Notes under the pieces: model-generated
What the model was told of the DNA's origin: nothing
Databases searched by the model: none
What the model saw: the letters and a program-made list of their open reading frames with translations, nothing else
Shown here: in pieces, positions 8,022 to 11,694 of the stretch
Position numbering within the stretch: the stretch's first letter is position 1
Layout: the number at the start of each line of letters is the position of its first letter
Sequence record: NZ_CP083999.1
Length of the DNA stretch: 16,180 nt
Strand: one strand, 5' to 3'
Source: a plasmid
Position numbers and translations under genes: made by a program

Positions 8022-8714
8022 TTACCCCTCGATGAGGTCTCTGTAGGCCATCTCCCAGAACTGCCACACCGGCATCGCTGCCGTGCGCCGATGGGCGTCC
8101 AACACGCGACGTGTCTGGGCGTTGATCTGTTCGCACGCCGTCTCGCTTAGCACGATCAGATCGGGGTATGCGGCCTCAATAGCGGCCTGCTGGGCAGCCG
8201 TGTCTTCCGGCGAAATCTGTTGTAGGCGTTCTTCTGTGGCCGCGCCGATCTCTGCGCGGCGCTCCACGCACCGCTTCATGATCATGCCGACCCGCCTGAG
8301 CGCACTACCCACGGCTCGATGCATCCGCTCAGTCTCATCACACCGTCGCCCCGCCTCAGCAAGCAGCTCGGCGACGTCATCGACCAAGGCTTCGAGCTCG
8401 CCGCGACCCACACTTTCGCCAACGATCATGCTAGGACCAAACCGCTCAACCGACACTGCTGACGGCTCCCGGCGAAGAACCTCCAACCAGCCCTTCAACC
8501 GGCCCTGACGCCACTTCCAATCAGCCAGCGCGTCACAGTCAATGCCAACGCTCACATATTGCACTGCCGCGTCGAAGACAAGCCGCGCTTCGTCGACCGG
8601 CCACTCGCTACGCTTCTTCAACCGCTTCACCGGCCACGTCAAAGGCCGCGGCTCCATCAATACCCGCTCAATGACATTAGCTAAATCAACTGCCGACGAA
8701 CAACTTTCAATCAC
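8022..8714 (-). CDS. Hypothetical 230-aa protein, last gene of the EspK-like operon.
   Basis: Its start overlaps the stop of the upstream gene (ATGA at 8711..8714). Good GC3 bias. No domain recognised. Confidence 0.6.
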   Translation of the reverse strand: MIESCSSAVDLANVIERVLMEPRPLTWPVKRLKKRSEWPVDEARLVFDAAVQYVSVGIDCDALADWKWRQGRLKGWLEVLRREPSAVSVERFGPSMIVGESVGRGELEALVDDVAELLAEAGRRCDETERMHRAVGSALRRVGMIMKRCVERRAEIGAATEERLQQISPEDTAAQQAAIEAAYPDLIVLSETACEQINAQTRRVLDAHRRTAAMPVWQFWEMAYRDLIEG

Positions 8715-11023
8715 CGTAGCGCCGCGCCTTTCAATGGTGCCCGTATACCGGCCACCCAGGCGGCGTACACCACATTCAGCAGGTCCTCATCGTGGCGCTC
8801 CCAGCACAGCAGCGCCTCCAGCTGCCGGCAGCGGACAAATTCGCGTGTGTAACTGACCGTCTGATCGGGGTTTTGCAGTCCGTTTAATCCCGGCCGCTGG
8901 CACGCCATCTGTACCAAGGCATCCTCGTGTTCCTCGCCCAGCAGCGCCCACTCCGCGGCGCTGGGCCGGCGTTCGGCCACCAACGCCTGCCCCACCGACT
9001 GCGCAACCGCCGACAGCTCCTCACCGGGAATACCAAACACCAGCTGGCGGACCAACTCTCGGCAATAATCGCGTAGCACCGACTCACCAGCTGCCACCAA
9101 ATCCGCGTACAAGGCTGCGTCGACCGTTTGCAGGCGATGGGCTCGCGGCTGCGATAACTTCGCCGCCGCGTTATCGCTTTCCAGGCTCGGTTTCACACCG
9201 TAAGCAACCTGCGGCGCCGGGTGCTCGCTCAAGAATTCAGACGGCAACGCCCACGAGGTGGCCACCGCGCTCACCGTGTCGCCGAACTCCCGTGCTGCCC
9301 GCACCGCCTTATCGGCCGGATTCACCCAGCCAAACCAGCGCGCATCGAAATCTGCATCGTGTCCGCCGGCGATCGGCATCATCTTGCGCAAGAACACGCC
9401 CGGCGGGATATAGGTCGCGCCGTCGTTAGTAGCCACCCAATACGTCGGCATCCCCGAACCGTTATGACCAACGGCCACAGCCCAATCCACACCAGGATCA
9501 GTTTTCGCCGCCGCCCCAGCCAGTTCGGCGACCCACATCTTGGCCTGCTCCAAATCCGACCAGGCATCATCCTTGCGGACCGTCACCACGTCACGTCGGC
9601 CCGCCACCGGCATCAACCCCGCCCCCGCCCCTGGTGACCCGCCTCCGGCCTCGGCAGGAACCGAAGGCCCAGCCGGCGTCGAACCCAACGGCGAAGCCGC
9701 CGCCGGTGCGCCCTGCGGAGGCAGAACCGACCCGTACGACGTCAAACCACCCGCCGGCATACCCGCCGCAGGCGCCGGCGCTGGAGCCGAAGCAGGCGCC
9801 GGGGGCGAAGTAGACACAGGAGCGACCGCCGGCGCCGCCGACGTCGGGGCGGTCTCGATCGGCGCCGTCAACGGTGTCATCGGCGTCGACGTCACCGGCG
9901 GAACACCCCCCGCCGCCGCAGCACCCGCCGCTAAACCACGCCCGAAGTCCATCCCCAGCGACGGCATCGGTGAGCCCTGCAACCCAGACGCACTCAACCC
10001 CGTGGGCGAGGGCATACCGCCGGGAAAACCGCCAAACCCACCCATCAGCCCCTGCAACGGGCCCATCGGAAGCCCACCCCCCGAGCCGCCCCCAGGCATA
10101 CTCGGCAAACTCGGCAACCCGCCGCCAATCAGCGACGTCAAAGGGTTGTAGCGCGACGGAGGGGGATTGGCTTCCGGGGAATGTGCAACTGTGCGCCCGC
10201 CCGGTACCAAGGGGATCTTGTCGCCGCTTGGAGAATGGTCTGCCGCTACTCCCGGGGGCGGCCCAGAAGCTGGATCCCCAGGCGGTGCCGTGTCAGCTCC
10301 ATCAGGTGAGTGATCCCCAGTCCGCCCCCCGGCTTGTTTGAACTTTGGTCCGCCGGGCCCGCCTAACTTGAAGTGGTTGGTGAACTGGGTGGCGTACTGG
10401 GTGGCGTAGCCCTGCAGCTCAGATGAATACCCTTGGATCGTCGCTCGATGTACACCAAGGACTACCGCCACCTGCGCAAGCGACTGCCCAGAGCCACTTC
10501 GCAGAAACGCGAAGGCCTCTTGATGCGCCTGCTTGTTTACCTCGAACATATGCCTCTTGATGCTTGACACATCCTCGGCGCCGCGCCTGATCAAACCAGA
10601 AGCAACCCTGTTGATCTCCGCCTCGAAATCCTTGATGGACGCCGCCTCAAACTGGGCCGCTCGCCCAGCGTCCCCGCTCTTACCCACCCACGACCCACCG
10701 TCAAACACCCTGTTCACCGCCTGGCGGATCGTCGTCGCGCCGCCATCGTGCAGCTTGAAATCCTCAGCACACTGATCCGCGGCGGCATTCAAGGCCGTCT
10801 CCGAGTCTTCCGGCCAAACATACGGCTGAAACAAAAAGCGGACGAACGCGCCCTGCGGCCGAGGATGATCACCACTGACATGCGGCAGTGACGCTGGCTG
10901 GATACTGCGCACTGGTCCCCGGTTGACCACCCTCAACAGCCGCGCCGCCTGCTCCTTATTGCGCTCCGCCCACCAGTCCGCAACCTCAACCCCATCCCCG
11001 TTCGGGCCTATCACCGTCGCCAT
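8711..11023 (-). CDS. EspK-like protein, 771 aa from the ATG at 11023 (the ORF track starts at a GTG at 11047). Mosaic of a WXG-like N-terminal domain, a Pro/Ala/Gly-rich low-complexity linker of about 250 aa, and an EspK-type C-terminal domain.
   Basis: The N-terminus carries a WXG-like motif (FDGGSWVGKSGDAGRAAQFEAA; compare EspK GGLWSGGAANAA). The linker runs PGGGSGGGLPMGPLQGL...APAPAPAAG. In the C-terminal domain, WAVAVGHNGSGMPTYWVATNDGATYIPPGVFL parallels EspK [29 protein letters not shown] as recalled. A gaggtaa Shine-Dalgarno-like motif lies upstream of the ATG at 11023, 5 nt after the upstream gene's stop. Confidence 0.7.
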   Translation of the reverse strand: MATVIGPNGDGVEVADWWAERNKEQAARLLRVVNRGPVRSIQPASLPHVSGDHPRPQGAFVRFLFQPYVWPEDSETALNAAADQCAEDFKLHDGGATTIRQAVNRVFDGGSWVGKSGDAGRAAQFEAASIKDFEAEINRVASGLIRRGAEDVSSIKRHMFEVNKQAHQEAFAFLRSGSGQSLAQVAVVLGVHRATIQGYSSELQGYATQYATQFTNHFKLGGPGGPKFKQAGGRTGDHSPDGADTAPPGDPASGPPPGVAADHSPSGDKIPLVPGGRTVAHSPEANPPPSRYNPLTSLIGGGLPSLPSMPGGGSGGGLPMGPLQGLMGGFGGFPGGMPSPTGLSASGLQGSPMPSLGMDFGRGLAAGAAAAGGVPPVTSTPMTPLTAPIETAPTSAAPAVAPVSTSPPAPASAPAPAPAAGMPAGGLTSYGSVLPPQGAPAAASPLGSTPAGPSVPAEAGGGSPGAGAGLMPVAGRRDVVTVRKDDAWSDLEQAKMWVAELAGAAAKTDPGVDWAVAVGHNGSGMPTYWVATNDGATYIPPGVFLRKMMPIAGGHDADFDARWFGWVNPADKAVRAAREFGDTVSAVATSWALPSEFLSEHPAPQVAYGVKPSLESDNAAAKLSQPRAHRLQTVDAALYADLVAAGESVLRDYCRELVRQLVFGIPGEELSAVAQSVGQALVAERRPSAAEWALLGEEHEDALVQMACQRPGLNGLQNPDQTVSYTREFVRCRQLEALLCWERHDEDLLNVVYAAWVAGIRAPLKGAALR

Positions 11024-11028
11024 CTCGA

Positions 11029-11694
11029 TTACCTCGGCAGCCCGCACACATCGACAAGCGAGTTGATCGCGTCGTTGCGGACATCCGTCAACCGGTTTAC
11101 TTCACTTGTGGGCACGGTGCCCATGGCCGCCGTTGTCTGGTCCAGGGTTGTACCGATGTATTTGCGAGCCGCCGAGGCGACATCGGGCGGAACAGCTGCG
11201 GTAAGCGCGTTCTGTACTGCCGACGCACTGTTGAGTGCCCGCAGCACCATTGGCAGATTAACCCCACCGCCCTCGACTCGAACCCCACCCTGGCCTTCCT
11301 GGCCGCGCACAGATATGTCGAACGCGCGGCACAAATTATCCTTCGCGCCGGCTAGTTCGGCCGGGCTGGATTCCGCCTTTGTCGGCGCCGGCGAGACGGT
11401 TACCGTCTGGGGCGATGCTGGCGTAGACGCCTGATTACTTCCCTGACCCAGGTAGGTCACCACCGATCCCACTGCGGCCGCCAGTATCACTACGCCGATC
11501 CACCTCGCCGCCGCGCCGGCGTTATGGGGCCGGCGCGGCGGGCCCGCAGGTGGAGTCCACCCGGGTGCGGCTGGCGCTGCCGTCCTGTCCGGTGCACCGG
11601 GCGGCGCCGGAGGCAATACCACGGACGGCCGCGCCTCTTTCGACCAAGGCGATTCCCCCACGCCGGGCGGGGGTGTAGGCCTTTCTTGGCTCAT
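11029..11694 (-). CDS. Proline-rich single-pass membrane protein, 221 aa. Pro-rich cytoplasmic N-terminus, TM helix WIGVVILAAAVGSVVTYLG, Ser/Thr/Pro linker, then a C-terminal extracytoplasmic domain.
   Basis: The topology is inferred from the sequence. It is translationally coupled to the EspK-like gene. Confidence 0.6.
   Translation of the reverse strand: MSQERPTPPPGVGESPWSKEARPSVVLPPAPPGAPDRTAAPAAPGWTPPAGPPRRPHNAGAAARWIGVVILAAAVGSVVTYLGQGSNQASTPASPQTVTVSPAPTKAESSPAELAGAKDNLCRAFDISVRGQEGQGGVRVEGGGVNLPMVLRALNSASAVQNALTAAVPPDVASAARKYIGTTLDQTTAAMGTVPTSEVNRLTDVRNDAINSLVDVCGLPR

Follow-up and report, generated by a model that had tools for sequence, protein, structure and literature searches.

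An EspK-like gene module in the backbone of a small Mycobacterium avium plasmid: a candidate type VII adaptor or co-substrate served in trans

Why should a plasmid of about 16 kb that encodes no secretion machinery carry a gene for a large EspK-like protein? We addressed this question with the plasmid sequence NZ_CP083999.1, a stretch of 16,180 nucleotides analysed over its whole length (the window). In it an EspK-family gene, here called g2, lies between g1, encoding a membrane protein, and g3, encoding an all-helical protein, with a short open reading frame (ORF), orf89, close by. On balance, and with modest conviction, our analysis favours the view that these genes form a backbone module of a small M. 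avium plasmid and that g2 would act as a type VII adaptor or co-substrate served in trans by secretion machinery encoded elsewhere. The features of the module, by position in the window, are:

11029..11694, minus strand: g1, membrane protein of 221 aa with a single predicted transmembrane segment, Pro-rich at its N-terminus; its C-terminal domain, with two Cys, belongs to the Rv2240c family (PF27150)
11032..11035, minus strand: GAGG, Shine-Dalgarno-like motif within the end of g1, 8 nt ahead of the g2 ATG
11031-11023, minus strand: g1/g2 junction, with the TAA stop at 11031-11029, a 5-nt gap (TCGAG) and the ATG at 11023
8711..11023, minus strand: g2, 770-aa EspK-family protein with a WXG100-like N-domain, a disordered linker and an EspK_C domain
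10364..10990, minus strand: helical N-domain of g2 (residues 12-220), resembling WXG100_2 and homologous to the N-terminal part of EspK
10682..10690, minus strand: WxG motif W112-V113-G114, read from the sequence, its turn position taken from the AlphaFold2 model
9593..10363, minus strand: g2 disordered Pro/Ala/Gly-rich linker (residues 221-477, 257 aa)
8714..9592, minus strand: g2 C-terminal EspK_C ('sea snail') domain (residues 478-770)
8714-8711, minus strand: g2/g3 junction, a 4-nt overlap (GTGA) in which the GTG start of g3 lies over the TGA stop of g2
8022..8714, minus strand: g3, 230-aa all-helical protein with a GTG start, the variable third position of the module
7691..7960, plus strand: orf89, 89 aa with a moderately hydrophobic centre, convergent with g3

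The g2 protein has three parts, as an earlier sequence-only reading had proposed. In an AlphaFold2 model built with 38 homologues, residues 12-220 are helical and residues 478-770 form an alpha/beta and helical domain, both with a predicted local distance difference test (pLDDT) score of about 90. The Pro/Ala/Gly-rich linker between them, put at about 250 residues in that reading, is predicted to be disordered (pLDDT 27-47). The W112-V113-G114 motif is placed in the turn that links two long helices, 75-108 and 115-176, and a W-x(1-2)-G motif is kept at this position in 33 of the 38 family members. Even the linker contains short conserved motifs (LPSLPSMPGGG, DFGRGLAAGA and YGSVLPP), with F360, G361, G363 and Y430-P436 as invariant or near-invariant columns.

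Both folded domains can be related to EspK. The sole Foldseek match of the model with E<1e-3 was 8ako_B (E 1.4e-4), and precomputed Pfam matches name the C-domain family PF27215, EspK_C. The C-domain thus shows the 'sea snail' fold of EspK, in which an alpha/beta shell is combined with a helical foot. A profile of the C-domain alone reaches the 8ako_B sequence at E 0.034, the alignment running from the start of both domains through the first strands (W..AV....G....VA.N.G..YIP.G..LP). Compared by hhalign with EspK orthologues taken from the ESX-1 loci of 11 species, the g2 C-domain matched with a probability of 90.5 (E 1.4e-6) and g2 residues 53-195 matched EspK residues 3-145 with a probability of 99.0 (E 2.3e-18); the motifs WPE..E and VF.GG.W.G..A.AA, found by eye, are common to the two proteins. 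The predicted WXG-like N-terminus and EspK-like C-terminus are thus both upheld. Two homologues that share 48-50% of their residues with g2 reach 33.3 and 31.7 bits with the Pfam family WXG100_2 (PF25547; gathering score 27), EspK orthologues score 18.7-21.9 bits, i.e. below the gathering score, and g2 of the window itself gave no WXG100_2 match at E<=1. Simpler searches were less sensitive: local Pfam and NCBIfam scans of g1, g2 and g3 gave no significant match, the local Pfam copy being without PF27215 and PF27150 (names we know from the precomputed hits only), and EspK was found in the PDB sequences neither by phmmer with g2 nor by the full-length g2 family profile, which returned spurious matches because of its low-complexity linker. 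As the N- and C-domains match EspK and the three-part architecture is the same, we take g2, on the strength of these profile and fold comparisons, to be a full-length EspK paralogue, and we regard this family assignment as solid.

The family is wider than EspK. The C-domain profile collected 441 clusters (at 50% identity), mostly of proteins of about 770-850 aa that carry the domain C-terminally as g2 does. The named clusters among them all come from mycobacteria, and a cluster look-up of distant representatives gave only 'hypothetical protein' from Mycobacterium and Mycolicibacterium. An EspK_C-like domain is likewise present in Rv3899c (PDB 5IMU), Rv0029 and Rv2082 of M. tuberculosis.

We considered whether g2 might be the ESX-1 EspK orthologue itself and ruled this out. 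Its C-domain is 19% identical to that of EspK (Rv3879c) of M. tuberculosis and M. marinum, its N-terminus is extended by about 50 residues, and its Gly/Ala/Pro-rich linker has conserved motifs of its own where EspK has PVTP repeats. The EspK gene lies in ESX-1 beside espL, espB and espJ, whereas g2 lies outside ESX-1, on a replicon without ESX genes and with none of these three genes nearby. Homologues of its own partners, g1, orf89 and g3, were not found in 40 ESX-1 loci, and ESX-1 has been lost from M. avium (PMC4791881).

The genes g1, g2 and g3 are real. There are 118 homologues of g2, mostly full length (760-800 aa), and more than 120 contigs, the majority of 10-20 kb, encode an identical protein. 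The ratio of nonsynonymous to synonymous substitutions (dN/dS) in the folded domains of g2 is 0.14-0.19 when the window is compared with pMAC109b, a diverged small plasmid (dS 0.18-0.30), and 0.13-0.29 against copies on large plasmids; the many full-length homologues and these low ratios support the gene status. Counted from a GTG at 11047, the longest possible g2 ORF would encode 778 aa, and the form starting at the ATG at 11023 is identical to database protein P0001; the three co-directional genes of the sequence-only reading thus stand, with a central protein of 770 rather than 771 aa. Of the two tight junctions it described, the first, a 5-nt gap with an internal Shine-Dalgarno-like GAGG, can be read directly from the sequence; at the second the 4-nt overlap is correct, but its sequence is GTGA instead of ATGA. 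Homologues conserve the first 19 residues of g3, which supports its GTG start; some gene callers start at an ATG 19 codons downstream, giving a 211-aa protein (P0119).

The partners of g2 are conserved to different degrees. The description of g1 as a Pro-rich single-pass membrane protein agrees with its sole strong hydrophobic stretch, a predicted transmembrane segment at residues 65-83 (Kyte-Doolittle 2.01). The g1 protein and most of its 170 homologues have a precomputed match to PF27150, the uncharacterised Rv2240c family, the g1 profile had no match in the PDB sequences, and the gene lies directly upstream of g2 in every plasmid locus examined. The small orf89, which had been left out of the originally proposed operon, accompanies g1-g2 in all plasmid loci examined; it is 61% identical (E 9e-38) to an 89-aa gene directly upstream of g1 in the plasmid pRAW and has no Pfam or NCBIfam match. 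In contrast to this constancy, g3 has only 17 homologues. The 16-kb plasmid shares g3 with pMK12478 and pMAC109a, pP2-4a has a weakly similar counterpart, and pRAW has none; its slot is taken by a DUF4440 gene in pHP17a and by a 181-aa gene in pMAC109b (9979-10524) and in the 22-kb plasmid of strain mc2 2500 (11716-12261). This 181-aa gene, for which no family match was found, is unrelated to g3, and it, too, shares a few bases with the end of its g2 neighbour, so that the third slot appears interchangeable and always tightly coupled. The AlphaFold2 model of g3 consists of helices only (pLDDT 82.7); there was no Pfam match, and Foldseek against the PDB gave no match with E<0.4, the listing of EspB (4xxx) at E 2.7 and probability 0.15 being meaningless. 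As g3 varies between plasmids, comparison of their gene content indicates that the conserved unit is orf89 with g1 and g2, g3 being replaceable, and the trio first proposed as a functional unit has to be redrawn in this sense. We also considered the variable third gene as part of a polymorphic toxin-immunity system and rejected this, the C-domain being the most conserved part of g2.

What kind of DNA carries the module? A blastn map shows that the two ends of the window adjoin in a circular 15,940-bp plasmid copy (L007), so the window is a complete circular replicon of 16,180 bp. It is 100% identical to 15.8-15.9-kb plasmids of M. avium subsp. hominissuis, for example pHP17c, and is a derivative of this common 15.9-kb plasmid with two changes from the canonical form. 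The survey for ecc and mycP genes beyond the window that had been suggested therefore has nothing further to cover, and the absence of a type VII system extends to the whole replicon, on which we found no ecc, mycP, esx or PE/PPE gene. Positions 7521-11762 of the window are colinear with positions 11494-7253 of L007, and this is the backbone DNA that holds g1-g2-g3. The two changes are an element of the insertion sequence (IS) family IS256 and a Tni-like segment:

5891-7520: IS256-family element with imperfect 50-nt inverted repeats (5895-5944 and 7467-7516) and a transposase gene (5968-7242)
11763-14999: Tni-like segment of 3.2 kb encoding a resolvase, a TniA-like protein (rve and Mu-transposase C) and a TniB-like protein (AAA_22)

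Their position among IS elements and a Tni transposon had made the genes look like mobile cargo. This view has to be given up: g1-g2-g3 are plasmid backbone, and the IS256 and Tni-like elements are later, secondary insertions. Cargo of a Tni-type transposon in particular is ruled out by the colinearity of the module with the backbone and by the position of the Tni-like segment as a separate insertion.

If the module belongs to the plasmid, with which secretion system could it work? Homologues of g2 were matched by tblastn on 49 plasmid records; the hosts are Mycobacterium or Mycolicibacterium throughout, and pRAW, pMAH135, pMA100, pMyong1 and pMK12478 are among these plasmids. In pRAW, orf89-g1-g2 lie about 3.7 kb upstream of the type VII locus ESX-P1 and are co-directional with it (in the order C40 peptidase-eccB-eccC-PE-PPE-esx-espG-eccD-mycP-eccE-eccA); pHP17a and pP7a have the same layout, and pMK12478 carries an intact g1-g2-g3 trio about 8 kb from eccB. 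The orthologues on pRAW-like plasmids (pRAW, the pMAH135 type, pMK12478 and pMyong1) are 63-78% identical for g2, 43-50% for g1 and 61-72% for orf89, with the g1-g2 order and tight spacing of the window, and are annotated as hypothetical, as 'chemotaxis protein' or as 'WXG100 family type VII secretion target'. The difference lies in the setting: on these plasmids the module is linked to a complete ESX-P1 and to type IV secretion system-like genes, whereas in the window it has no such neighbours on its 16-kb replicon, and orf89 has changed place and orientation. A link to a plasmid-borne ESX system, as first suggested, is thus supported as far as synteny goes, since orthologues head the ESX-P1 loci of pRAW, of pMAH135-type plasmids and of pMK12478.

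Two observations bear on exchange between these plasmids. A 27-kb contig (GCA_002089935.1, region of interest 10582-19337) carries an identical g1-g2-g3 and a truncated relaxase gene, followed by a pRAW-like block with genes for a 514-aa protein, an EspC-like type VII target, a PPE protein and WhiB; since this contig is a hybrid of both, small and large plasmid types recombine. In pMK12478, unannotated DNA beside an IS256 element encodes a 44-aa stretch (15366-15497) that is 84% identical to g2 residues 342-385, around DFGRGLAAGA, and may be a remnant of a second g2-like gene.

The small and the large plasmids also occur together. Four strains that carry the canonical 16-kb plasmid have been sequenced completely (HP17, MAC109, OCU855s_P2_4s and OCU873s_P7_4s; n=4 only). 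A large ESX-P1 plasmid is present in every one of them, and each of these large plasmids has its own diverged copy of the module (63-78% identity). When the variant small plasmids are included, a module beside ESX-P1 on a co-resident large plasmid is seen in four of six sequenced cases.

These results suggest a function by analogy with EspK. EspK, a chaperone and substrate associated with ESX-1 secretion, binds the helical tip of EspB with its C-domain. According to a published proposal, this contact serves to hand EspB over to EccCb1 for export; secretion of EspB requires EspK, which is itself secreted in an ESX-1-dependent manner (PMC9811218, PMC9214503). By this analogy, g2 would be a type VII adaptor or co-substrate, its C-domain would hold a helical partner, for which g3 or a PPE or Esp protein of a helper plasmid are candidates, and its N-domain would be the part presented to the secretion machinery. 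The g1 protein may act with g2 at the membrane, its C-terminal domain probably lying outside the cytoplasm. The replicon encodes no secretion machinery, and the machinery must therefore come in trans, most probably from the ESX-P1 of a co-resident pRAW-like plasmid; the chromosomal ESX-2, -3, -4 or -5 would be less likely sources. Conjugation of pRAW requires eccC of ESX-P1 (PMC4173767). Speculatively, the module might help the 15.9-kb plasmid in its intact form, with a MobF relaxase gene, to exploit the ESX-P1-dependent conjugation of the helper. Such a role in mobilisation is attractive since the intact plasmid has few genes besides those for replication, partition, resolvase and relaxase and the module; a maintenance function can be dismissed, as transposon sequencing (Tn-seq) in MAC109 found only the Rep homologue of pMAC109b essential (PMC6978383). 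The specific form of this idea, in which the small plasmid carries an EspK-type adaptor module of its own in order to plug into a co-resident pRAW-like ESX-P1, is a tentative proposal that we hold to be rather doubtful. If it were true, mobilisation in slow-growing mycobacteria would need a plasmid-specific type VII adaptor or co-substrate in addition to a relaxase, and orf89-g1-g2 would be the minimal set of ESX-P1-associated functions that each transferring replicon encodes for itself.

Several points weigh against the adaptor reading. No EspB homologue is encoded in the window, and g3 has no significant similarity to EspB or to PE/PPE proteins; nor can g3 be a universal cargo, as unrelated genes replace it in sister plasmids. 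The YxxxD/E export motif is not conserved in the N-domain among the 38 family members. In pMAC109b an IS607 element lies between g1 and g2. The relaxase of the small plasmid is not of the pRAW type, and the module is missing from many related MobF plasmids, pVT2 for one, and is therefore not generally needed for the mobilisation of MobF plasmids. Finally, no ESX-P1-type plasmid of strains mc2 2500 and 101115, which harbour the 22- and 35-kb variants, was found among the 49 records matching g2, and co-residence is thus not obligatory. As for the YxxxD/E motif, which we also considered as a mark of g2 as a type VII substrate and rejected for its lack of conservation, it could be supplied by a partner protein of g2.

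The alternative that survives best, unlikely as we find it, is that the module is a passenger remnant, captured from a pRAW-like plasmid without a selected function and persisting since the plasmid is young and clonal. Parts of the module are about 80% identical at the nucleotide level to pMK12478, the identical copies on the many contigs noted above are as expected for a recent clone, and the displaced orf89, the IS607-split and g3-less arrangement of pMAC109b and the non-essentiality of the module in Tn-seq would all fit a passenger. Against this, all four ORFs are intact, the folded domains of g2 have kept their low dN/dS between two diverged small-plasmid lineages, and the module, about a quarter of the 16-kb replicon, has been retained in the 16-, 22- and 35-kb variants.

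We give somewhat less credit to the possibility that g2 is a substrate or effector of a chromosomal system (ESX-5, -2, -3 or -4), directed at the host or the envelope and merely spread by the plasmid. On plasmids the family adjoins ESX-P1, it is absent from the ESX-1 loci examined, g2 lacks a canonical YxxxD/E signal, and an ESX-P1 plasmid accompanies the canonical 16-kb plasmid in four of four cases; these observations speak against it. What keeps a chromosomal destination in play is that EspK itself is secreted via ESX-1 (PMC9214503), that the two strains with variant plasmids have no recorded ESX-P1 plasmid in the collection, and that g1-g2 pairs also occur on the chromosomes of M. simulans and M. 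intracellulare.

Strong divergence between co-resident copies of g2 raises the question of conflict. Between pHP17c and pHP17a, dN is 0.39 in the N-domain and 0.15 in the C-domain, and the copy number of pMAC109b exceeds that of pMAC109a (4.9x vs 1.8x; PMC6978383). A diverged EspK paralogue on the small plasmid might thus compete with or block the copy of the helper and so modulate ESX-P1 activity, for example by exclusion or by interference with helper transfer. Descent from different plasmid lineages would explain the divergence equally well, and we consider this kind of conflict improbable. Most improbable of all, and contradicted by its domains, is a protein with no part in secretion: the RefSeq label 'chemotaxis protein', its one source, belongs to a truncated gene call of the EspK_C domain, Pfam and NCBIfam scans found no chemoreceptor or signalling domain, and both domains of g2 are homologous to EspK.

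The reading of g2 as an adaptor or co-substrate served in trans adds to what has been described. In our literature search neither the module nor its association with ESX-P1 turned up, nor did any account of EspK-like genes on small or pRAW-like plasmids or of such a module where the plasmid lacks a type VII system. The domains themselves are already in databases, as Pfam EspK_C and under the NCBI name 'WXG100 family type VII secretion target'; what would be new is that an adaptor of the EspK family has other conserved partners, belongs with the ESX-P1 of plasmids and is here apparently used in trans. EspK-type adaptors reach beyond the ESX-1 virulence loci. Conjugation of the pRAW type is the only plasmid transfer known to require a type VII system; the 16-kb plasmid, with one ESX-P1-linked module besides a relaxase and its functions for replication, partition and recombination, offers a short list of candidate genes.

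The copy of the plasmid in the window differs from the canonical form in ways that may affect these functions. The IS256 element stands in place of about 4.4 kb of the canonical plasmid, as mapped by blastn against L007, and this loss takes the gene for the 1201-aa MobF/TrwC relaxase, of which the last ~58 nt remain; because the relaxase is gone, mobilisation or transfer of this copy has probably been lost. The relaxase had also been considered as a link to pRAW-type plasmids and was rejected as such, since it groups with the relaxases of many small mycobacterial plasmids that are free of the module. The Tni-like segment has replaced 128 bp of the canonical plasmid. It sits in the interval that separates g1 from the resolvase gene of the plasmid itself (15037-15675), with its near end 68 bp upstream of g1, and may have changed the expression of the module in this copy. 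The same segment occurs alone in other M. avium plasmids at 96-99.9% identity, the 22-kb plasmid of strain mc2 2500 has it at the same site, and no terminal inverted repeats were found for it. Its insertion falls where the res site of the plasmid's own resolvase might be expected, a position reminiscent of the res-site targeting by Tn5053/Tn402-type elements.

The other genes of the window encode ParA, a Rep-like helix-turn-helix (HTH) protein, the resolvase, the IS256 transposase and the resolvase, TniA and TniB of the Tni-like segment. One of them deserves a line of its own:

4570-5862: HTH_36 protein, counterpart of the Rep homologue of pMAC109b

This protein is the probable replication initiator, as its counterpart was the sole essential gene of pMAC109b by Tn-seq in MAC109 (PMC6978383).

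RefSeq calls for the g2 family are often truncated and mislabelled 'chemotaxis protein'. In NZ_CP059002.1, NC_022654.1 and NZ_HG917973.1, the PLSDB/RefSeq tables reduce the intact 770-aa gene to about 290 aa from its C-terminal end, under the name 'chemotaxis protein' or 'hypothetical'. They also shorten the ORF of g1, and spurious opposite-strand ORFs are sometimes called over the GC-rich linker. Other records annotate the full g2 gene as 'WXG100 family type VII secretion target'.

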